A stretch of 10,787 nt of DNA, taken from IMG/VR virus record IMGVR_UViG_2534681766_000003, positions 1 to 10,787 of that record. One strand, 5' to 3'. Below the pieces are notes generated by a model. That model was not told where the DNA came from. It searched no databases and worked only from the letters and a program-made list of their open reading frames with translations. Of this stretch, positions 1 through 10,787 are shown piece after piece (the stretch's first letter is position 1; every line of letters begins with the position of its first letter). The DNA is from a virus (Duplodnaviria; Heunggongvirae; Uroviricota; Caudoviricetes). The position numbers and the translations under genes were made by a program.

Positions 1-662
1 CCCGGGAAGTGCGGCGCTTCCGTCTGAGTGGCCACGGTCACAGCATGGTTATCACTGACCTGCCCGGGGTGGGCGAGAGCCGGGACAGAGATGCAGAGTA
101 TGAAGCCCTGTACCGTGACATTCTGCCCGAACTGGACCTGGTGCTGTGGCTGATTAAAGCCGATGACCGCGCCCTGTCTGTGGATGAGTATTTCTGGCGA
201 CACATCCTGCACCGGGGACATCAGCAGGTGCTGTTTGTGGTGACGCAGGCCGACAAAACGGAGCCCTGCCATGAATGGGATATGGCCGGTATTCAGCCTT
301 CTCCCGCACAGGCACAGAATATTCGCGAAAAAACGGAGGCGGTATTCCGTCTGTTCCGGCCCGTACATCCGGTTGTGGCCGTATCGGCCCGCACCGGCTG
401 GGAACTGGATACGCTGGTCAGTGCGCTCATGACAGCGCTTCCCGACCATGCCGCCAGTCCCCTGATGACCCGCCTGCAGGACGAGCTGCGCACGGAATCT
501 GTCCGGTCTCAGGCCCGTGAACAGTTTACCGGTGCGGTGGACCGGATATTTGACACAGCGGAGAGCGTCTGTATTGCCTCTGTTGCACGCACGGTTCTGC
601 GTGCCGTCCGTGACTCGGTGGTCTCTGTTGCCCGCGCTGTATGGAACTGGATTTTCTTCTGA
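1..662 (+). CDS. YfjP/YkfA/YeeP-family GTPase (50S ribosome-binding GTPase-like), C-terminal part; 5' end lies upstream of the window
   Basis: Open frame runs from the window edge to the stop at 660-662. The translation (…VITDLPGVGESRDRDAEYEALYRDILPELDLVLWLIKADDRALSVDEYFWRHIL…VVTQADK…) carries a DxxG-type switch region and an xxxD-type guanine-specificity region, and resembles the YfjP/YkfA/YeeP GTPases of E. coli CP4-type cryptic prophages as I remember them. Which paralog it is cannot be told from this fragment. Confidence 0.8.
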   Translation, partial: REVRRFRLSGHGHSMVITDLPGVGESRDRDAEYEALYRDILPELDLVLWLIKADDRALSVDEYFWRHILHRGHQQVLFVVTQADKTEPCHEWDMAGIQPSPAQAQNIREKTEAVFRLFRPVHPVVAVSARTGWELDTLVSALMTALPDHAASPLMTRLQDELRTESVRSQAREQFTGAVDRIFDTAESVCIASVARTVLRAVRDSVVSVARAVWNWIFF

Positions 663-745
663 ACACTCTGCCAGGGGAAATGCCTGATTACATTGCGTTA
701 ACCAACTGAAAACATGACCCCCCCCCTCATACCCACCTCTTTCTC

Positions 746-774
746 TTGCGTGACCTCCCTGCTGTTAATAGAAT
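746..774 (+). promoter_or_regulatory. Putative sigma70 promoter (-35 TTGCGT 746-751, 17-bp spacer, -10 TAGAAT 769-774), with predicted start site at about 780-782
   Basis: Hexamers with consensus-like spacing, read by eye in the intergenic region between the GTPase gene and the DUF968-like gene. The predicted start falls on the first GATC of the downstream cluster. Confidence 0.3.
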
Positions 775-778
775 AAAA

Positions 779-823
779 CGATCGATAAAACAGGTATCGA
801 TCGTTACTATCGATCGTTTATAG
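779..823 (+). promoter_or_regulatory. GATC cluster in direct repeats (CGATCGAT / TATCGATCG x3); candidate Dam-methylation/OxyR-type phase-variation operator
   Basis: GATC at 780-783, 799-802 and 812-815, three sites in 36 bp against an expectation of about one per 256 bp. The octamer ATCGATCG or CGATCGAT occurs at 779-786, 796-803 and 809-816, and CTAT / TATAG half-site-like elements flank the third copy. The layout resembles the agn43 (flu) regulatory region, which lies downstream of yeeP in E. coli K-12. Confidence 0.4.
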
Positions 824-928
824 TGGTTAATGGTCTGCGAAAAGGCAGTTGAATCTCTTCATCATGCAGAACGGAATTGCACAAAACGGACTGATACTTC
901 TCTGGCGGATGAGAGAGGGGAAGCATTT

Positions 929-1354
929 ATGTCCGGGAAAAACCACTTTACCCGGGAAAGTGACCTTGTGCCTTCGGTTCCTGCCACCAGCATCATCCAG
1001 GATAAAGCGAAAAAGGTGCTGGCGCTGAAAGTGGATCCGGAGTCGCCGGAGTCTTTTATGTTACGCCCAAAACGTCGCCGCTGGGTTAATGAAAAGTACA
1101 CGCGCTGGGTTAAGACACAGCCGTGTGCATGTTGTGGAAAGCCTGCTGATGATCCCCACCACCTGATAGGTCACGGTCAGGGTGGAATGGGAACAAAAGC
1201 GCATGACCTCTTTGTGTTGCCTTTGTGCAGAAAGCATCACGACGAGCTGCATGCGGATACCGTGGCATTTGAAGAGATGTATGGCTCCCAGCTGGAGCTG
1301 ATATTTCGTTTTATCGATCGTGCGCTGGCGATCGGCGTAATTACGACAGCTTAA
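929..1354 (+). CDS. DUF968-like phage protein with a CxxC…HH…C…HH zinc-binding (HNH-like) motif
   Basis: Six-frame ORF 830..1354. I prefer the internal ATG at 929 (MSGKNHF…) because it follows a GAGAGAGGGGAA Shine-Dalgarno-like tract. The motif …CACCGKPADDPHHLIGHG…LPLCRKHHDELH matches my memory of DUF968 (YdfU-like) prophage proteins. The alternative start at 830 would give 174 aa. Confidence 0.6.
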   Translation: MSGKNHFTRESDLVPSVPATSIIQDKAKKVLALKVDPESPESFMLRPKRRRWVNEKYTRWVKTQPCACCGKPADDPHHLIGHGQGGMGTKAHDLFVLPLCRKHHDELHADTVAFEEMYGSQLELIFRFIDRALAIGVITTA

Positions 1355-2065
1355 GTGTATGGAGCGCTGAGAAGTATGAATCAACAAGACTTGAATTTTG
1401 TCAGAATAGAATTACGTCGTGCGCTGTTTGACTTCTCTGGGGGGACAAAAGGGCAGCTTGAGGCTTTCACTGAACACCCACCAGCAGACAAAAATGCCAC
1501 TCCACGCCGTGGAATTCATCTTGTCGAACTCGAAGGTGATAAGGGACCACGCTTTGTTAACTCGCTTTCCGCGCCATTGTACGTGCAAGAAACACGTAGC
1601 CGCCCCAGGCCAATGCCGCCGATAAAAGATGTAGAATTTGAGTCCGCGCCGTGGCGTAGGGCAGTGTCCGCGCTTAGTGGATACCAGCAGGCTTGGTTGC
1701 GGTACTGTTACGGTTTTGACCTTAACTATACGCACCAGGTGATGATGTGTGAATACGTCTGGAAGGCTTATCAGAAATGCTTGGGTGAAAACTCACTTCA
1801 GGAGCGCGTAGTAAAAAAACTAATAGGCCTAGTATGGCTTGCAGGACAGGAAATTGCTGCAACCCGAAACAATGAAACCTATAAAGACTACGCTGGTGCG
1901 GCGCTGGCCCGTATGGTTAGCGTTGACCGTTCGACATGGTTGCGCGTCTATTCAGGCCACTGGGCTGGGTTAAAGGCCGCTTTTACCCAGCTTGATGAGT
2001 CTGCGCTGGCCATGGCTCTTGAATACTATGAGGATGAAGAAGCTCTCAAAGTGGGAGAAATATGA
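1355..2065 (+). CDS. Probable phage antitermination protein Q-like late regulator (QuuQ / phage-82 Q type)
   Basis: 236-aa ORF. Its GTG start at 1355 abuts the DUF968-like stop at 1352-1354; an alternative ATG at 1376 (MNQQDLNF…) is equally plausible. Size and position match Q-like antiterminators of lambdoid prophages: it follows a DUF968 gene as quuQ neighbours ydfU in Qin, and is followed by a promoter-like stretch plus a terminator and then a moron. The family assignment is from memory, not a search. Confidence 0.45.
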   Translation: MYGALRSMNQQDLNFVRIELRRALFDFSGGTKGQLEAFTEHPPADKNATPRRGIHLVELEGDKGPRFVNSLSAPLYVQETRSRPRPMPPIKDVEFESAPWRRAVSALSGYQQAWLRYCYGFDLNYTHQVMMCEYVWKAYQKCLGENSLQERVVKKLIGLVWLAGQEIAATRNNETYKDYAGAALARMVSVDRSTWLRVYSGHWAGLKAAFTQLDESALAMALEYYEDEEALKVGEI

Positions 2066-2160
2066 CGTAAATTTCACTATCTCCTTCAAACGCGCTTGCA
2101 AAATACAACAAAATAAGCCATATTGGAAGCATATTTGATATGTTGCCAAAGTTTTATAAC

Positions 2161-2183
2161 CCCGCCGACGAGCGGGTTTTTTG
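2161..2183 (+). terminator. Intrinsic (Rho-independent) terminator, tR'-like
   Basis: CCCGC (2161-2165), loop CGACGA, GCGGG (2172-2176), followed by T6 (2177-2182). It lies about 95 nt downstream of the Q-like stop. Confidence 0.55.
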
Positions 2184-2258
2184 ATATGCGACATAACCTA
2201 TAACATTTTTTATAAAATAAAATATAATTGCTTTACCATTATCCTGTGAGTTGAGCAA

Positions 2259-3044
2259 ATGTATATATTTGAATTGACCAAACCTGGCAACTGGCTTGAA
2301 AGTGAAGACAAAGAGTGGTCTTGGAAAATAGAACGGCTTTTGGACCATCTTGAATTTGCATTTTATGAGGCTAATGTTGCATTAAATTTATTTATGCAGC
2401 AGCAAAACAATCAAATAGAACAACAAGGGGTTTCGCAATTGCAATGGGAAAAAGAAATGCAAGAACGAAGAACCATCGAAACACTAGTTCGTGAGGAGTT
2501 AGGTTTATCCCCTTTTGAGAATCCTGAAAACATACAATTTGAGGTGGACGCGAGGTTTAAACGAGAAAAGTGGAGTTCTGGTGAAATTCCACGTAGCCAC
2601 AAACATTGTGTGATTTTTATTTATGCAAAATCTTTTCTTTATTCTCTTGATACTATTGATAAATTTATAAAGGTTATTTCGAATGAACCTTATGCTCCTG
2701 AGTCGATAAAAGCCCTACACGATCAGATAGGTAAAGATTTTCCTGATCTCAGAGGGGTTAGGAATTCAACTCAACACCTCGAAGATAGGGCTCGAGGGCT
2801 TGGCGCAGGGAGAGAACCGAAGCCTTTGAATCTCCAGCCTATAAGTAATACCTTCATAAATGCACCGCAAGGTGCTTTGATATTAAATAATCTGAATGGC
2901 ACCAAATTCGGGTCAACTATGTCTGATGGTCACTATGGTGAAGTGGACATTTCACCTGAATCGTTATCAAAAATGCAAAGTATTGTTCAGGGCGTACTTG
3001 ACTCGTTTAAGTGGGTTGGTAATCAGCAACACTTACCAAGTTAA
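2259..3044 (+). CDS. Hypothetical protein, 261 aa, strongly AT-rich moron of unknown function (candidate defence / abortive-infection / toxin gene)
   Basis: Long intact ORF in a block (about 2070-3130) whose base composition is visibly AT-rich against GC-rich flanks. A TATAAT -10 box sits at 2223-2228 in an A/T-rich upstream tract. A terminator precedes it at 2161-2183 and another follows at 3068-3090. I recognise no family; it has no Walker or HNH motif and a single R-x4-H (RNSTQH). Confidence 0.7.
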   Translation: MYIFELTKPGNWLESEDKEWSWKIERLLDHLEFAFYEANVALNLFMQQQNNQIEQQGVSQLQWEKEMQERRTIETLVREELGLSPFENPENIQFEVDARFKREKWSSGEIPRSHKHCVIFIYAKSFLYSLDTIDKFIKVISNEPYAPESIKALHDQIGKDFPDLRGVRNSTQHLEDRARGLGAGREPKPLNLQPISNTFINAPQGALILNNLNGTKFGSTMSDGHYGEVDISPESLSKMQSIVQGVLDSFKWVGNQQHLPS

Positions 3045-3067
3045 CTAAACTTAATTATTCATATTAA

Positions 3068-3090
3068 GGCTGCCATATGGCGGCCTTTTT
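3068..3090 (+). terminator. Intrinsic terminator downstream of the AT-rich gene
   Basis: GGCTGCC (3068-3074), loop ATAT, GGCGGCC (3079-3085): a 7-bp stem with one G.U pair, followed by T5 (3086-3090). Confidence 0.6.
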
Positions 3091-3137
3091 ATTCCCTTCA
3101 CTTTTGAGAGGATTCACAGCAATTAAGAGGGGGCTAA

Positions 3138-3524
3138 ATGTCCGATCCGATTTCCGGCACAGGGTTAGCTGCTGGAGTCCTGACAGGCGCTAGTGTTTAT
3201 GGACTGCTGACCGGAACTGATTACGGTGTTGTATTTGGCGCATTTGCAGGGGCTGTATTCTACATCGCAACAGCAGCAGATCTGAGTTTATCGCGTCGAC
3301 TGGCATATTTTATCGTGTCGTATATTGCCGGAATCCTTTGCTCTGGGTTGGTTGGCTCCAAGCTGGCAAACTTGACCGGATACAGTGATAAACCTCTGGA
3401 TGCTATTGGTGCCGTAATCGTCTCTGCTTTAGCCGTTAAAATCCTGACGTTTCTGAATAACCAGGATATCGGTTCGCTGGTGGCGCTTATAACGCGCCGG
3501 GGAGGTTCAGGTGGAGCTAAATGA
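3138..3524 (+). CDS. Gly/Ala-rich multi-pass membrane protein (about 4 TM), possibly holin-like
   Basis: 128-aa ORF with a strong AGAGGGGG Shine-Dalgarno sequence before the ATG. It has four hydrophobic stretches (GLAAGVLTGASVYGLL, VVFGAFAGAVFYIATAA, LAYFIVSYIAGILCSGLVG, AIGAVIVSALAVKILTFL) and a charged C-terminus. It sits where lambdoid phages place lysis genes, immediately before HNH/terminase. Its composition matches the phage backbone, not the moron. No endolysin gene follows. Confidence 0.55.
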   Translation: MSDPISGTGLAAGVLTGASVYGLLTGTDYGVVFGAFAGAVFYIATAADLSLSRRLAYFIVSYIAGILCSGLVGSKLANLTGYSDKPLDAIGAVIVSALAVKILTFLNNQDIGSLVALITRRGGSGGAK

Positions 3525-3541
3525 CCCGACAGCAACTATAA

Positions 3542-3763
3542 ATGCGCTGTTACGGAACAAAGTGGGAAGTCATCCGGGAGCGGATACTTAAGCGCGACAA
3601 AGGGCTGTGTCAGAACCATCTACGGCAGGCGATAGTGAAGCAGGCGTCCTGCGTGGACCACATCAAGGCGAAGGCCCACGGCGGTACTGATGAAGACAGC
3701 AACCTTGAAAGCCTGTGCTGGTCGTGTCACGCAGCGAAGACCGCGCGTGAGCGGCTCAAGTGA
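3542..3763 (+). CDS. HNH endonuclease (phage packaging-associated)
   Basis: 73-aa ORF with an HNH signature: …RDKGLCQNH…VDHIKAKAHGGTDEDSNLESLCWSCHAAK… It lies immediately upstream of the terminase small subunit, as in HK97-like phages. An in-frame stop at 3539-3541 fixes the start at 3542; there is no obvious Shine-Dalgarno sequence. Confidence 0.75.
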   Translation: MRCYGTKWEVIRERILKRDKGLCQNHLRQAIVKQASCVDHIKAKAHGGTDEDSNLESLCWSCHAAKTARERLK

Positions 3764-3889
3764 TAATTAATGTCATCATCAGACTGGGGAGGGGGAGGTC
3801 AAATCTCTGCGACCGCGCGCCTTCCGGACTGCCCGCCCCATCGTTTTTTTATACCCGCGAAAAATGAAATTTAACCAGGAGTGCCGCAT

Positions 3890-4384
3890 ATGGCTGGAAC
3901 GGCGGGGCGTTCCGGGCGTCGCCCCAAGCCAACGGCGCGCAAGGCGCTGGCCGGAAACCCCGGCAAGCGAGCCCTGAACAAAGATGAACCTGTTTTTACG
4001 CCCATCAAAGGTGTTGAGCCACCGGAGTGGTTCGCTGAAGAAGATCTCCCTCTCGCCACGATCATGTGGCAACTGACAACCAAAGAACTCTGCGGTCAGG
4101 GCCTGCTGTGCGTGACTGACCTCGCGGTGCTTGAGCGGTGGTGCGTGGCCTATGAGTTCTGGCGACGTGCTGTGAAAAATATTGCCATACAGGGCAACAC
4201 CATCACCGGCGCAATGGGCGGCAGGGTCAAAAATCCGGAGCTGACAGCCAAAAAAGAACAGGAGTCCGAGATGAGCAGCACGGGGGCAATGCTCGGACTC
4301 GACCCCAGCAGCCGCCAGCGTCTGATTGGCCTGGCGGGGCAGAAGAAAGCCACTAACCCGTTTCTGAAAATTATCGAATCATGA
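3890..4384 (+). CDS. Terminase small subunit, P27 family
   Basis: The N-terminus [34 protein letters not shown] matches the P27-family TerS signature (…GNPGKRPLN…). AGGAG lies 8 nt upstream of the ATG at 3890. The stop overlaps the TerL start (ATGA at 4381-4384). Confidence 0.85.
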
Positions 4385-6114
4385 GCCGGAAATCTTACCC
4401 CAACGTAAATGCTGCAAATCAGTATGCCCGGGATGTCGTGCGCGGAAAGATTGTTGCCTGCCAGTTTGTGATTCAGGCCTGCCAGCGCCATCTTGATGAC
4501 CTGATGGCGGAAAAAAGTAAGTCGTTTCGTTACCGCTTCGACAAGGACCTGGCTGAACGGGCCGCCAAATTTATTCAGCTGTTACCGCATACCAAGGGGG
4601 AATGGGCATTCAAGCGGATGCCCATCACGCTGGAGCCGTGGCAGCTCTTTGTGATCTGCTGTGCGTTTGGCTGGGTCTATAAAGGTACCCGGCTGCGCCG
4701 CTTCCGTGAGGTGTATACCGAAATCCCCCGTAAGAACGGCAAATCGGCAATCTCTGCCGGTGTCGCCCTGTATTGTTTTGCCTGTGATAACGAGTTCGGT
4801 GCGGAAGTGTATTCCGGTGCCACGACGGAGAAACAGGCATGGGAAGTCTTTCGTCCGGCACGACTGATGTGTAAACGCACACCCATGCTGACGGAAGCGT
4901 TCGGGATTGAGGTTAACGCCTCAAACATGAACCGTCCGGAGGATGGTGCGCGGTTTGAACCGCTGATCGGTAACCCCGGTGATGGTTCATCACCCCACTG
5001 TGCCGTGGTGGATGAATATCACGAGCACGCCACAGATGCGCTTTACACCACAATGCTTACCGGGATGGGGGCGCGACGCCAGCCACTGATGTGGGCTATC
5101 ACCACCGCCGGGTACAACATTGAGGGGCCGTGCTACGACAAGCGGCGGGAAGTTATCGAGATGCTCAATGGCTCGGTTCCCAACGATGAACTGTTCGGGA
5201 TCATCTATACCGTTGATGAAGGTGACGACTGGACCGACCCGCAGGTGCTGGAAAAAGCCAATCCAAATATTGGCGTGTCGGTTTATCGCGAATTTTTGTT
5301 AAGTCAGCAGCAGCGTGCGAAAAATAATGCCCGTCTGGCAAACGTCTTTAAAACAAAACACCTCAATATCTGGGTGTCGGCGCGTTCGGCGTATTTCAAC
5401 CTGGTGAGCTGGCAGAGCTGCGAGGATAAATCACTGACCCTTGAGCAGTTCGAGGGGCAGCCGTGCATTCTGGCCTTTGACCTGGCGCGTAAGCTGGATA
5501 TGAACAGCATGGCGCGACTTTATACCCGCGAGATTGACGGTAAAACGCATTACTACAGTGTGGCCCCGCGTTTCTGGGTACCGTATGACACGGTGTATAG
5601 CGTCGAGAAAAATGAAGATCGCCGGACAGCCGAACGCTTTCAGAAATGGGTGGAAATGGGCGTCCTGACCGTTACCGATGGTGCAGAGGTGGATTATCGC
5701 TACATCCTCGAAGAGGCCAAAGCGGCGAACAAAATCAGCCCGGTCAGCGAGTCACCCATCGACCCCTTCGGGGCGACCGGGTTGTCACATGACCTTGCTG
5801 ATGAAGACCTGAACCCCGTCACCATTATTCAGAACTACACCAACATGTCCGACCCGATGAAAGAGCTGGAAGCGGCAATTGAATCGGGGCGCTTTCATCA
5901 TGATGGCAATCCCATCATGACCTGGTGTATCGGCAACGTGGTCGGAAAAACCATTCCGGGTAACGATGATGTGGTGAAACCCGTCAAAGAGCAGGCAGAA
6001 AACAAAATCGATGGTGCAGTTGCGCTGATTATGGCGGTTGGCAGAGCCATGCTGTACGAGAAAGAAGACACGCTGTCTGACCACATTGAGTCCTACGGGA
6101 TCCGCTCGCTTTAA
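4381..6114 (+). CDS. Terminase large subunit (HK97-like)
   Basis: 577-aa ORF with a Walker A-like motif ([11 protein letters not shown]) and a Walker B-like motif ([10 protein letters not shown]), with size and position typical of TerL. Translationally coupled to TerS. Confidence 0.9.
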
Positions 6115-6125
6115 CTGAGGTAATT

Positions 6126-6308
6126 ATGATCATGCTGATTCTCGCGCCTCTGGTAGGTGTGCTGGGGGCGCTTTTGCTGGCGTATGGTGCCTGGCTGATT
6201 TATCCCCCGGTGGGTTTTGTTGTTGCCGGGGTGTTGTGCCTGTTCTGGTCGTGGCTGGTGGCGCGATATCTCGACCGTACACAGCAGTCTGTCGGCGGAG
6301 GTAAATAG
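6126..6308 (+). CDS. Small hydrophobic membrane protein (60 aa) between TerL and portal
   Basis: GAGG Shine-Dalgarno before the ATG at 6126. Two predicted TM helices. Its stop TAG (6306-6308) overlaps the portal GTG start (6308-6310), suggesting coupling. Confidence 0.5.
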
Positions 6309-7549
6309 TGTTCTTTTCGGGATTATTTCAACGAAAAAGTGACGCACCGGTGACCACGCCCGCAGAGCTGGCGGATGCTATCGGGTTGTCCTACGACACC
6401 TATACCGGAAAGCAGATCAGCAGTCAGCGGGCCATGCGACTGACGGCGGTTTTTTCCTGCGTCAGAGTGCTGGCAGAGTCGGTCGGGATGTTGCCCTGCA
6501 ATCTGTATCACCTGAACGGCAGCCTTAAACAGAGAGCCACCGGCGAACGTCTGCATAAGCTGATCTCCACGCATCCCAATGGCTATATGACGCCGCAGGA
6601 GTTCTGGGAGCTGGTGGTCACCTGTCTGTGCCTGAGGGGAAACTTTTACGCCTACAAAGTGAAAGCATTTGGCGAAGTGGCTGAACTGCTGCCCGTCGAT
6701 CCCGGCTGTGTGGTACCGAAGCTTAACAGTAGCTGGGAGCCGGTCTATCAGGTCACATTCCCGGACGGCTCAACGGATGTGCTGACCCAGGAGGATATCT
6801 GGCATGTGCGCACGCTGACGCTGGACGGTCTGGTGGGACTGAATCCCATCGCCTATGCCCGCGAGGCAATATCGCTGGCAGCAGCGACTGAAGAGCACGG
6901 TGCCAGACTGTTCAGCAATGGCGCGGTGACGTCCGGTGTGTTGCGTACAGAACAGACGCTGTCGGATCAGGCTTATGAGCGCCTGAAGAAAGATTTTGAG
7001 GAGCGTCACACCGGGCTTGGCAATGCTCACCGTCCGATGATCCTTGAGATGGGGCTGGACTGGAAGTCGATGGCATTGAACGCCGAGGATAGCCAGTTCC
7101 TGGAAACCCGCAAGTTTCAGCTTGAAGAAATCTGTCGTCTGTTCCGTGTGCCCTTGCACATGGTGCAGAACACCGATCGTGCCACCTTCAACAATATCGA
7201 AGAGCTGGGGCTGGGATTTATCAACTATTCACTGGTGCCGTATCTGACCCGCATCGAACAGCGGATCAACACCGGACTGGTACGAAAAAGTAAGCAGGGC
7301 GTTTATTACGCCAAATTTAACGCCGGGGCGTTACTGCGCGGGGATATGAAGTCCCGTTTTGAAGCCTACGCCACCGGGATCAACTGGGGAATTTACTCTC
7401 CCAATGACTGCCGCGACCTGGAAGATATGAATCCGCGTCCCGGTGGTGATGTCTATCTCACACCGATGAACATGACCACGAAACCCTCCGATGGCAGTAA
7501 AGCCGGTAAGCAGAAGGATAACGCCAATGCAGACGAAACAACGTCTTGA
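6308..7549 (+). CDS. Phage portal protein, HK97 family
   Basis: 413-aa ORF with a GTG start preceded by GGAGG (6297-6301). N-terminus MFFSGLFQRK…; size and placement between TerL and the prohead protease fit HK97-type portals. Confidence 0.9.
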   Translation: MFFSGLFQRKSDAPVTTPAELADAIGLSYDTYTGKQISSQRAMRLTAVFSCVRVLAESVGMLPCNLYHLNGSLKQRATGERLHKLISTHPNGYMTPQEFWELVVTCLCLRGNFYAYKVKAFGEVAELLPVDPGCVVPKLNSSWEPVYQVTFPDGSTDVLTQEDIWHVRTLTLDGLVGLNPIAYAREAISLAAATEEHGARLFSNGAVTSGVLRTEQTLSDQAYERLKKDFEERHTGLGNAHRPMILEMGLDWKSMALNAEDSQFLETRKFQLEEICRLFRVPLHMVQNTDRATFNNIEELGLGFINYSLVPYLTRIEQRINTGLVRKSKQGVYYAKFNAGALLRGDMKSRFEAYATGINWGIYSPNDCRDLEDMNPRPGGDVYLTPMNMTTKPSDGSKAGKQKDNANADETTS

Positions 7550-8177
7550 TGTACCGCTGAGTCTGAAATCTGTCAGTGACTCCGGTGAGTTTGAAGGGTA
7601 TGGCTCCGTCTTTGGTGTAAAGGACAGCCACGATGATGTGGTGATGTCCGGGGCATTTGCTGCTTCCCTACGGGCGTGGAGTGACAGAAAAGCGTTACCT
7701 GCGCTGCTCTGGCAGCACCGCATGGATGAACCCATCGGTGTTTACACCGAAATGAAGGAAGACGATGTCGGGCTTTACGTCAGGGGACGGTTGCTTATTG
7801 ATGATGATCCCCTCGCAAAACGCGCACATGCACACATGAAGGCCGGTTCGTTAACCGGCCTTTCTATTGGGTACGTCCTGAAAGACTGGGAATACGACCG
7901 GAGCAAAGAAGCCTTTCTGCTGAAAGAAATCGACCTCTGGGAAGTCAGCCTGGTGACGTTCCCGTCTAACGACGAGGCGCGGATCAGCGACGTCAAGAAC
8001 GCACTGGCCCGCGGGGAAATCCCCGAACAGAAAAAAATCGAAAGAGTCCTGCGTGATGTCGGACTCTCCCGTACCCAGGCCAAAGCATTCATGGCCGGGG
8101 GCTATGGCGCACTGTCCCTGCGCGACGCTGAGGATGTGGGCTCTGCACTGAATGCACTGAAAAATCTGAACTTCTAA
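7527..8177 (+). CDS. Prohead maturation protease, HK97 family (peptidase S78/U35)
   Basis: Six-frame ORF 7491..8177. The preferred start is the ATG at 7527, with AAGGA 8 nt upstream, overlapping the 3' end of the portal gene. Sequence (…GYGSVFGVKDSHDDVVMSGAF…) and position between portal and capsid are typical. Confidence 0.85.
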   Translation: MQTKQRLDVPLSLKSVSDSGEFEGYGSVFGVKDSHDDVVMSGAFAASLRAWSDRKALPALLWQHRMDEPIGVYTEMKEDDVGLYVRGRLLIDDDPLAKRAHAHMKAGSLTGLSIGYVLKDWEYDRSKEAFLLKEIDLWEVSLVTFPSNDEARISDVKNALARGEIPEQKKIERVLRDVGLSRTQAKAFMAGGYGALSLRDAEDVGSALNALKNLNF

Positions 8178-8191
8178 TCAGGAGAAATACG

Positions 8192-9397
8192 ATGGCGGTT
8201 GATATTAAAGATGTCGAACAGGTCGCGCAGGAGCTGCAGCAGAAGTTTGACGACTTCAAAGCAAAGAACGACAAGCGCGTGGATGCGATTGAGCAGGAAA
8301 AAGGCAAACTTGCCGGGCAGGTGGAAACCCTGAACGGGAAACTCAGCGAGCTGGAAAATCTCAAAAGCGACCTTGAAAAAGAGCTGCTTGAGCTGAAACG
8401 TCCGGCAGGTGGTGCGCAAAATAAACTGGCCACAGAGCACAAAGAGGCGTTTGTGGGCTTTCTGCGTAAAGGCCGTGAAGACGGTCTGCGCGATCTGGAG
8501 CGCAAGGCATTGCAGGTGGGCACCGATGAAGACGGTGGCTATGCCGTGCCGGAAGCACTGGATCGCAACATTCTCACCCTGCTGAAAGATGAAGTGGTGA
8601 TGCGCCAGGAAGCCACGGTGATCACTGTTGGCGGTTCCGACTACAAAAAACTGGTGAATCTGGGCGGCACGGCTTCCGGATGGGTGGGCGAGACTGACGC
8701 GCGCTCCCAGACTGCCACCTCAAAACTGGGACTGATTGAACCTTTCATGGGGGAAATCTACGGTAACCCGCAGGCCACTCAGAAAATGCTGGATGATGCC
8801 TTCTTCAACGTGGAGGCCTGGATCAACAGCGAGCTGGCGACCGAATTTGCCGAACAGGAAGAAATTGCCTTTACCACCGGTGATGGCACCAAGAAGCCAA
8901 AAGGGTTCCTGGCGTATGAATCCACCGATGAAACCGATAAGGTTCGTGCGTTCGGTAAACTTCAGCATATTGTATCCGGTGAAGCGACGACGGTGACCGC
9001 AGACGCCATTATCAAACTGATTTACACGCTGCGTAAGGCACACCGCACTGGCGCGAAGTTCATGATGAACAACAACAGCCTGTTTGCCATCCGTCTGCTG
9101 AAAGACACCGAGGGTAACTATCTGTGGCGTCCGGGGCTGGAGCTGGGGCAACCGTCCTCTCTGGCGGGTTACGGTATCGCTGAAAACGAACAGATGCCGG
9201 ATATCGCCGCTGATGCGAAAGCTATTGCATTTGGTAACTTCAAACGGGGTTACACCATCGTTGACCGTATCGGTACCCGCATTCTGCGTGATCCGTACAC
9301 CAATAAACCGTTTGTCGGTTTTTATACCACCAAGCGCACCGGCGGCATGCTGGTCGATTCGCAGGCCATCAAACTGCTGAAGATTGCAGCGGCGTAA
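8192..9397 (+). CDS. Major capsid protein, HK97 family, with N-terminal coiled-coil delta (scaffolding) domain
   Basis: 401-aa ORF with AGGAG before the ATG. The N-terminal roughly 100 aa are coiled-coil-like (…QELQQKFDDFKAKNDKRVDAIEQEKGKLAGQVETLNGKLSELENLKSDLEKELLELK…), followed by a capsid-fold-sized body. No separate scaffold gene is present, as in HK97. Confidence 0.9.
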   Translation: MAVDIKDVEQVAQELQQKFDDFKAKNDKRVDAIEQEKGKLAGQVETLNGKLSELENLKSDLEKELLELKRPAGGAQNKLATEHKEAFVGFLRKGREDGLRDLERKALQVGTDEDGGYAVPEALDRNILTLLKDEVVMRQEATVITVGGSDYKKLVNLGGTASGWVGETDARSQTATSKLGLIEPFMGEIYGNPQATQKMLDDAFFNVEAWINSELATEFAEQEEIAFTTGDGTKKPKGFLAYESTDETDKVRAFGKLQHIVSGEATTVTADAIIKLIYTLRKAHRTGAKFMMNNNSLFAIRLLKDTEGNYLWRPGLELGQPSSLAGYGIAENEQMPDIAADAKAIAFGNFKRGYTIVDRIGTRILRDPYTNKPFVGFYTTKRTGGMLVDSQAIKLLKIAAA

Positions 9398-9402
9398 TCA
9401 CT

Positions 9403-9430
9403 CAGGGGCGCTGAATTGCGCCCCTGTTCT
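9403..9430 (+). terminator. Strong hairpin (9-bp perfect GC-rich stem, 6-nt loop) just after the capsid gene; possible leaky terminator or RNA-stability element
   Basis: CAGGGGCGC (9403-9411), loop TGAATT, GCGCCCCTG (9418-9426), followed by TTCT and no long T-run. Confidence 0.4.
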
Positions 9431-9446
9431 GACAGGTGAAAGAATC

Positions 9447-10574
9447 ATGATCCTGAAACAAGATCTGAAATGGTCACCGGACGGTAAAGCCAGCGAAACT
9501 AATGCTAAATCCAGTGAAACAAACGCGGCGAAATCTGCGGCGGACGCACTTAATTATCGCAACCAGGCGCAAGTAATTGTTGGCGATAATATCGGTCTTG
9601 GCTCAGCCCCGCGTGATTGTCCTGATATTTCCGGCAACCCATCAGGGTATATCGGATTTATGCGCATTATGAGTAATGCAAAAGGCTTTCCATCGATTGC
9701 ATCCGGTGAAAGCAGTCTTACGGGGTTTATTAGTCAGGTAGATGGAACACCAGCGTATACAGGTGTATTTCAGGGATGGACTACGCGCTCGCTTTATACT
9801 TATCGCTGGAATCCGACAATAGGCCCGCAATGGACACGCCACGCAAGAAAAGATGAGGTTATCCGATTTCAGCGTTCAAGCGACACAAGAACCATCATTT
9901 TATCTACTGACGTTCAGGCGGACGGCTGTTACTTACAGGTTGATGCTGACGGTCAGTGGGGCGCATTTAACCCTAAAGCTGGTAGATGGCAACCGCTCGC
10001 AGTTGCGCAAGGTGGCACTGGGGCGAATGATGCAAGTACAGCGCGCTCTAAACTTGAAGTCATGTTTGAAGCAAAAACTGGCCTTGATGCGAATACGAAC
10101 TTAAACGATATAAAAGGTACTACAGCCGGTTTTTATTACCAACCAATGTCTGCCAACGCAAAGCCAGAACTAAATTACCCGATACAGCTTGCTGGTGCAT
10201 TGTTAGTGCAAAGAACTGGTGCTAATGGTAGTGATGGTTGTATCCAGAGCTATTTTGTATATAACAATTCATCAATTCTTTATAGAAGGATATATACCAG
10301 CACACAAGGTTGGAGTGTATGGAAAAAAATAGTATTAACAGAAAGAATTGAAGAAGGCGAATCGACAACTTACGTTTATTCGAATTACTCACCATCAGCG
10401 CCACGACTTCAGGTGTCAACATCTGGATTGTGGGGTTGCCATAACGGATCGTCATGGGTTCCATTACCTATTGGACAAGGAGGCACTAATGCGGCAACTG
10501 TTGATGGTGCCAGAACGAATCTTGGCTTAGGTAGGAACAACAGCCCTCAACTTAACAGTCTATTTCTTGGGTAA
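9447..10574 (+). CDS. Tail fibre-like protein, N-terminal about 374 aa; 3' end interrupted by IS1 (truncated gene)
   Basis: Six-frame ORF 9384..10574. The preferred start is the ATG at 9447, with AGGTGA 8 nt upstream. The N-terminal low-complexity tract KASETNAKSSETNAAKSAADA resembles lambda Stf and T7 gp17 fibres. Two GGTxA…AR(S/T)xL(E/G) motifs (AQGGTGANDASTARSKLEV, GQGGTNAATVDGARTNLGLG) are fibre-repeat-like. The last sense codon and the stop (10569-10574) are supplied by the IS1 terminus GGTAATGAC. Confidence 0.6.
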   Translation: MILKQDLKWSPDGKASETNAKSSETNAAKSAADALNYRNQAQVIVGDNIGLGSAPRDCPDISGNPSGYIGFMRIMSNAKGFPSIASGESSLTGFISQVDGTPAYTGVFQGWTTRSLYTYRWNPTIGPQWTRHARKDEVIRFQRSSDTRTIILSTDVQADGCYLQVDADGQWGAFNPKAGRWQPLAVAQGGTGANDASTARSKLEVMFEAKTGLDANTNLNDIKGTTAGFYYQPMSANAKPELNYPIQLAGALLVQRTGANGSDGCIQSYFVYNNSSILYRRIYTSTQGWSVWKKIVLTERIEEGESTTYVYSNYSPSAPRLQVSTSGLWGCHNGSSWVPLPIGQGGTNAATVDGARTNLGLGRNNSPQLNSLFLG

Positions 10575-10787
10575 TGACTCCAACTTATTGATAGTGTTTT
10601 ATGTTCAGATAATGCCCGATGACTTTGTCATGCAGCTCCACCGATTTTGAGAACGACAGCGACTTCCGTCCCAGCCGTGCCAGGTGCTGCCTCAGATTCA
10701 GGTTATGCCGCTCAATTCGCTGCGTATATCGCTTGCTGATTACGTGCAGCTTTCCTTTCAGGCGGGATTCATACAGCGGCCAGCCAT
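10570..10787 (-). mobile_element. IS1 insertion sequence, partial (right inverted-repeat end; continues beyond the window)
   Basis: 10570-10787 matches the reverse complement of the IS1 right end as I remember it: GGTAATGACTCCAACTTATTGATAGTGTTTTATGTTCAGATAATGCCCGATGACTTTGTCATGCAGCTCCACCGATTTTGAGAACGACAGCG… including the terminal inverted repeat. Confidence 0.9.
10585..10787 (-). CDS. insB: IS1 transposase InsB, C-terminal part (5' end beyond the window)
   Basis: Minus-strand translation ends …[29 protein letters not shown], with the stop codon complement at 10585-10587. This matches the IS1 InsB C-terminus. Confidence 0.85.

Follow-up and report, generated by a model that had tools for sequence, protein, structure and literature searches.

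The window analysed here, a stretch of 10,787 nucleotides that makes up the entire contig APXD01000179.1 of E. coli 2730350, raises the question of how three closely spaced GATC sites at a sigma-70-like promoter came to stand in front of a DUF968 gene and the antiterminator Q gene of a lambdoid prophage. The initial annotation had seen in this arrangement the Dam/OxyR architecture of phase-variable promoters such as agn43 and gtr, and had implied a dedicated switch for a phage late-regulator operon. In K-12 flu/agn43, an experimentally characterised Dam/OxyR switch (PMC3764049, PMC13337833), OxyR that is bound to unmethylated GATCs keeps agn43 repressed and Dam away from the sites, which is the OFF state, and methylated GATCs exclude OxyR, which is the ON state; both states are heritable, and switching occurs at about 1 in 1,000 per generation (PMC3764049, PMC2909390, PMC4872104, PMC13337833). 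The analysis below strongly favours a simple answer, namely that an agn43 switch was joined by a recent microhomology deletion to the truncated DUF968 gene and the Q gene of a prophage remnant, and that the arrangement is very probably a deletion scar and not an evolved design. The features on which this answer draws are collected in Table 1.

Table 1. Features of the window, with their positions, strands and the basis on which each was assigned.
Feature	Position	Strand	Basis and remarks
YeeP-type GTPase gene, 3′ part (217 codons)	1–662	+	CP4-44-type island; cut by the contig start; annotation in WP7-S17-ESBL-04 and position of yeeP in K-12
agn43 promoter	746–774	+	−35 TTGCGT 746–751, 17-bp spacer, −10 TAGAAT 769–774; read from the sequence
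Three Dam sites, GATC-I, -II and -III of agn43	780–815	+	GATC at 780–783, 799–802 and 812–815; offsets 19 and 13 bp
agn43 leader, first 171 nt (5′ part of the IsrC/IS102 RNA)	780–950	+	100% identical to WP7-S17-ESBL-04 12141–12311
Chimeric ORF, 141 aa	929–1354	+	Seven codons of a leader mini-ORF (MSGKNHF) plus DUF968/HNH-like residues 198–331
Deletion junction with 3-nt microhomology TTA	948–950 (950/951)		Three-way alignment; BLAST arms 1–950 (agn43) and 948–3552 (prophage)
Antiterminator Q, intact, 229 aa	1376–2065	+	PF06323, 3.2e-37; phrog_304, 1.2e-71; annotated as antitermination protein Q in CD45
Putative PR′ and tR′-like terminator	2096–2183	+	TTGCAA 2096–2101, 18 bp, ATATTG about 2120–2125 (by eye); hairpin 2161–2176 plus T6 (scan)
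261-aa protein, in the ‘moron’ position after the putative PR′/tR′	2259–3044	+	phrog_5322 (unknown function), full length
Holin	3138–3524	+	PF16931, Phage_holin_8
Second private deletion junction	3551–3552		Holin-2 joined to an HNH endonuclease gene; 2.2 kb missing relative to CD45
Third private junction	9481–9486 (approximate)		Small gene after the capsid gene joined to the interior of a tail-fibre gene
IS1 end	10570–10787	−	Interrupts the tail-fibre ORF; contig ends inside IS1

The promoter hexamers and the three GATCs could all be read in the sequence where the initial annotation had placed them, with a CGATCG core around each GATC (at 779, 798 and 811). Their spacing, GATC-N15-GATC-N9-GATC, occurs a single time in the window, and none of 200 dinucleotide-preserving shuffles reproduced it; since the window as a whole holds 37 GATCs where about 42 would be expected from its length, the cluster is a local one and not an effect of composition. 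A generic promoter scan listed the agn43 promoter neither in the window nor in E. coli WP7-S17-ESBL-04, because its −35 hexamer agrees with the consensus at only three of six positions; we regard this as a limit of the scan and not as counter-evidence. Scoring against the OxyR dimer-of-dimers consensus gave the two top values in the window at 768 and 800, each a moderate match at 13 of the 20 specified positions, and K-12 agn43 scored 14 of 20 at the equivalent places. Transcription is predicted to start at G780, because K-12 isrC is annotated to begin at the G of GATC-I, 5 nt beyond TAGAAT, and this agrees with the earlier prediction of a start at the first GATC. An 11-bp inverted repeat at 777–805 (AACGATCGATA...TATCGATCGTT), whose arms hold GATC-I and GATC-II, was flagged on the minus strand by the terminator scan; it is probably the dyad symmetry of the OxyR operator rather than a terminator.

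Alignment against the agn43 regulatory region, a check that the initial annotation had suggested, revealed 100% identity between window positions 1–950 and the GTPase/agn43 promoter/leader region of E. coli WP7-S17-ESBL-04, a strain in which the feature is flanked by a gene annotated as ‘GTPase family protein’ and an intact gene annotated as ‘Ag43/Cah family autotransporter adhesin’. The segment is common, being carried by about 3,450 (3,448–3,461) of 5,426 complete E. coli genomes; a 291-bp query around the feature, for which WP7-S17-ESBL-04 gave the best match, had matches in 3,461 of them. We sampled the genomic context in six genomes spanning the identity range, and the next gene encoded an Ag43/Cah/AIDA-type autotransporter in five of them, with an IS66 element in the leader of the remaining one. 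The TTG of the −35, TAGAAT and all three GATCs are invariant in an alignment of eight agn43 alleles that includes K-12. The YeeP-family GTPase gene reported upstream is indeed present, as in K-12, where the locus order is yeeP, isrC, flu within the cryptic prophage CP4-44; Pfam GTPase matches to the window gene were weak, and PADLOC gave no defence-system match for its product. Judged by homology, position, promoter and GATC architecture, the window switch is a member of the agn43 family, and its sequence identifies positions 746–830 as the genuine agn43 (flu) regulatory region, in its common non-K-12 allele, and not merely as an agn43-like one.

The window and the common non-K-12 allele share the promoter, the GATC triple and the leader to +171, at identities from 100% (WP7-S17-ESBL-04) to 99.3% (536, F11), and both lie in the same place after a yeeP-type GTPase gene, but the leader of that allele runs on into a terminator and the Ag43/Cah gene, whereas that of the window breaks at +171 into a phage gene. 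K-12 flu/IsrC (IS102, RF00124; CP4-44) likewise shares TAGAAT, the three GATCs at offsets of 19 and 13, the start at GATC-I and the upstream yeeP, but belongs to the other allele class, with 54 of 100 positions identical in an ungapped comparison over 746–845 and with a different leader and a different 15-bp spacer between GATC-I and GATC-II. In architecture, the window switch is unrelated to the gtr/opvAB type. The gtr operon of P22, opvAB and mom of Mu have in common with the window the competition between Dam methylation and OxyR at GATC-containing operators, which in gtr and opvAB gives heritable ON/OFF states (PMC2909390, PMC4856963). However, gtr and opvAB carry four GATCs in two pairs, which form alternative OxyR sites upstream of the promoter, and OxyR is also an activator there (PMC2909390), whereas the window has three GATCs in a single agn43-type repressor site from +1 to +36; in sequence, the window switch is unrelated to gtr, opvAB and mom.

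The agn43 sequence ends where leader position +171 is joined to codon 198 of a 331-codon phage DUF968 gene, and the right arm from there (948–3552) is 99.96% identical to a lambdoid prophage with HK97-type head genes in E. coli CD45. The order of genes given by the initial annotation, DUF968 and then Q with no autotransporter, was correct, but its ‘DUF968-like gene’ consists of the last 134 of 331 codons fused to seven leader codons. Residues 8–141 of the chimeric ORF are 100% identical to DUF968 residues 198–331; the profile matches are to positions 37–171 of 171 in Pfam DUF968, to HNHc_6 and to positions 196–334 of 334 in phrog_96, so that a full-length DUF968 (PF06147) is not present. The common non-K-12 leader contains an 8-codon mini-ORF, MSGKNHFI-stop (window 929–955; WP7-S17-ESBL-04 12290–12316), which is absent in K-12. 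A Shine-Dalgarno-like GAGGGG lies 8 nt upstream of this mini-ORF, and its start codon now serves the chimeric DUF968 ORF.

What the junction removed from the leader can be read from the intact allele. In WP7-S17-ESBL-04 the leader contains a terminator hairpin (12335–12362 plus T6, with a 12-bp stem; −23.5 kcal/mol, z = −6.8) that forms the 3′ end of the IsrC/IS102 RNA, which Rfam RF00124 matches at full length in both K-12 and WP7-S17-ESBL-04; this hairpin sits 24 nt past the crossover point and is therefore missing from the window. RF00124 scored 252.6 bits in K-12, 74 bits in WP7-S17-ESBL-04 and, because the 3′ part of the leader is deleted, only a partial 20.3 bits in the window, where a whole-window Rfam scan at gathering thresholds returned nothing. 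According to Wallecha and colleagues in 2014, the leader hairpin is reportedly a functional rho-independent terminator that attenuates agn43, and from the same work, the K-12 annotation and the folding we take the IsrC RNA to be the terminated agn43 leader. On folding, the chimeric leader appeared unstructured (z = −0.64), and the terminator scan found no strong terminator between 780 and the start of Q at 1376. Both elements expected after an agn43 promoter, the leader terminator and then an Ag43-family autotransporter, are thus absent from the window, and we interpret this as loss by deletion, which is no argument against agn43 homology.

The survivors of the prophage on the other side of the junction are the truncated DUF968 gene, Q, the putative PR′/tR′, the 261-aa protein, one holin, an HNH fragment, the small and large terminase subunits, the portal, the protease and the major capsid protein, and nothing remains from before DUF968 codon 198, the losses being the repressor, replication genes, a phage adenine methyltransferase, RusA and KilA-N. 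The region from 952 to 3100, which comprises Q and the sequence downstream of it, retains 100% DNA identity to the intact CD45 prophage. By analogy with its position after Q in lambdoid phages, the stretch after Q, in which a GC-rich hairpin follows the promoter-like pair by about 35 nt, resembles a short PR′ leader plus tR′, where Q would be expected to act. The 261-aa protein is 100% conserved in intact relatives and had no Pfam match and no PADLOC match. In CD45, the prophage’s own N6-adenine methyltransferase gene (6221–6874) lies a few genes upstream of DUF968, in the part that is deleted in the window.

Two further private junctions mark the rest of the element. The second takes out the endolysin and Rz-like genes, and none of the 5,426 complete E. 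coli genomes spans it; it also creates a 73-aa ORF (3542–3763) in which the HNH motif is kept (PF01844, 9.4e-11). At the third, an ORF at 9447–10574 carries the first 13–15 codons of the post-capsid gene in frame with the tail-fibre interior (phrog_6578 positions 183–544 of 1210); in GCA_049980225.1, a separate draft assembly, the tail-fibre fusion ORF reaches 850 aa and has a Peptidase_S74 domain. The IS1 insertion is younger than the three deletions, because this sister assembly has no IS1 at that place. Between them, the second and third deletions cost the prophage its endolysin and Rz-like genes together with nearly all genes for head completion and the tail, which leaves it a decayed remnant; with endolysin, spanin and tail genes gone it is unable to form particles or lyse the cell.

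From these data we propose that illegitimate recombination at the 3-nt microhomology, in the lineage of E. coli 2730350, joined the agn43 leader to the interior of the DUF968 gene, and that this event would have removed the leader terminator, the agn43 gene and the prophage’s whole early and immunity region. What it left in front of the phage genes would be a weak sigma-70 promoter with three Dam sites in one OxyR operator at the start and in the early transcribed region. In ON-phase cells, transcripts from G780 would cover first the chimeric ORF of 141 codons and then the intact Q gene, probably ending at the terminator near 2161–2183, and Q may then antiterminate transcripts begun at the putative PR′, extending them into the late genes that remain, those for the 261-aa protein, holin, terminase, portal, protease and capsid. 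The dedicated switch for a late-regulator operon that had been implied gives way, in this proposal, to a single microhomology junction that truncates DUF968, occurs in 0 of 5,426 genomes and lies in a prophage remnant.

Phase-variable transcription of the truncated DUF968 gene and Q is plausible and, in our rating, probable. With switch and Q both intact and the leader terminator gone, phase-variable expression of Q would be reasonable to expect, and read-through to Q is made plausible by the absence of a strong terminator over 780–1376, by the unstructured chimeric leader and by the precedent of agn43-yeeR-irmA (PMC4807369). In that operon of uropathogenic E. coli, genes 3′ of the agn43 promoter are co-regulated by OxyR (PMC4807369), which is the likeness to the window; there the passengers follow an intact agn43, whereas the window has lost agn43 and has phage genes in the passenger position. 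The likeness to the lambdoid Q/PR′/tR′ system is that an intact Q (PF06323) precedes a promoter-like site and an intrinsic terminator, with the late genes beyond them, but phage Q is normally transcribed from a repressor-controlled early promoter, and in the window the early region is deleted and the agn43 promoter is the only evident one upstream.

Whether the fused unit does anything for or to the cell is the point on which the closest competing explanation turns. We give somewhat less than an even chance to the view that the junction is real but phenotypically neutral, which could come about in several possible ways: the promoter might be OFF nearly always, the transcript might be terminated or degraded before Q, Q might have no useful target, or ON cells might be lost to holin toxicity, as the holin alone could harm them. 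This view is favoured by the heavy decay of the prophage, with three private deletions and an IS1, by the loss of the endolysin, the Rz-like gene, the tail genes and the immunity region, and by the recency of an event confined to one clone (1 SNP in 10.5 kb), which left no time for selection; against it, the switch, Q and the downstream region are intact and identical to those of working relatives (100% over 952–3100), and the only strong terminator of the leader has been deleted. Effect size is the sole difference between this view and the deletion-scar explanation that we prefer, and the 1 SNP between the two known carriers offers no evolutionary signal for or against selection. At the other end, we consider less likely than not a full natural promoter capture, in which the agn43 switch is the sole upstream promoter for Q and a heritable subpopulation, switching at about 1 in 1,000, turns on those late genes that survive. 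On this reading, losing the endolysin and Rz-like genes, a loss private to this lineage, could even have been a secondary adaptation by which the fusion became tolerable.

As a switch, the element is a textbook agn43 one, and it teaches nothing new about mechanism. Its context is a small curiosity, in that one microhomology deletion put Q under a heritable ON/OFF promoter and removed the attenuating terminator. If active, the fusion would represent a natural regulatory rewiring by genome decay and would provide a ready-made system for the effects of bistable Q expression in a cell with a defective prophage. Strains of the E. coli 2730350 lineage are without Ag43 at this locus, and the 141-aa ‘hypothetical protein’ deserves a warning to annotators as a fusion artefact of the deletion.

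All of this presupposes that the junction exists in the genome, and we conclude that it is real, recent and limited to one clone. GCA_049980225.1 carries the same junction with 1 mismatch over window positions 1–10569, on a contig that is 2.2 kb longer upstream, is without the IS1 that ends the window and also has both other private junctions, and three contigs, including one from this assembly, encode a protein identical to the 141-aa fusion. Since the two assemblies differ by 1 SNP, they represent one clone, and their independence is one of sequencing and assembly, not of the event. Elsewhere the junction was not found: a 201-bp query across it was covered to at least 80% by 0 of the 5,426 complete E. 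coli genomes and was spanned by no plasmid record, and an exact search for the junction 30-mer was negative in GTDB representative genomes, in JGI metagenome contigs and in IMG/VR contigs. A search for the ancestral arrangement found no complete E. coli genome with any of the three private junctions, and it is possible that the rearrangement was more complex than a simple deletion between island and prophage.

The absence of the junction from complete genomes, the short contig that ends in a repeat (IS1) and the near-identical counterparts that both arms have elsewhere would be compatible with an assembly chimera, in which the agn43 island and the prophage are separate in the genome and were wrongly joined, but we consider this very improbable. 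The assembly from the other project has the identical junction as well as both others, differing by one SNP and the IS1, the exact fusion protein recurs on three contigs, and the arms share 3 nt only, far under any assembler word size; because two separate assemblies share the same 3-nt-microhomology join, an assembler artefact is ruled out for practical purposes. A cloning artefact arising from CCCGGG, which occurs at the contig start and at 951–956, was also considered and dismissed, since the copy at 951 belongs to the native sequence of the DUF968 gene, and at the contig start the contig of GCA_049980225.1 continues 2.2 kb further upstream. The last explanation, that the phage brought its own Dam/OxyR switch as the native control of DUF968 and Q, with only a convergent resemblance to agn43, can draw on the Dam/OxyR control known in phages from gtr of P22 and mom of Mu (PMC2909390) and on the N6-adenine methyltransferase encoded by intact prophage relatives, but its probability is negligible and we regard it as refuted, given 950 bp that are 100% identical to agn43 upstream DNA including the GTPase gene, a DUF968 gene cut at codon 198, a KilA-N gene and not an agn43 promoter before DUF968 in intact relatives, and a left arm (window 700–950) for which even a search of 50,697 phage records at distant sensitivity gave no match.

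Two minor observations concern the agn43 region itself. In E. coli AVS0223, a complete genome, an IS66-family element (about 880–1582 of the locus) lies in the agn43 leader, about 100 nt past the start, so that the switch is again separated from agn43. In the window, a run of nine Cs at 718–726, lying past the GTPase stop codon and ahead of the agn43 −35, differs from allele to allele in both length and sequence, and K-12 has no such run; this tract could be prone to slippage.
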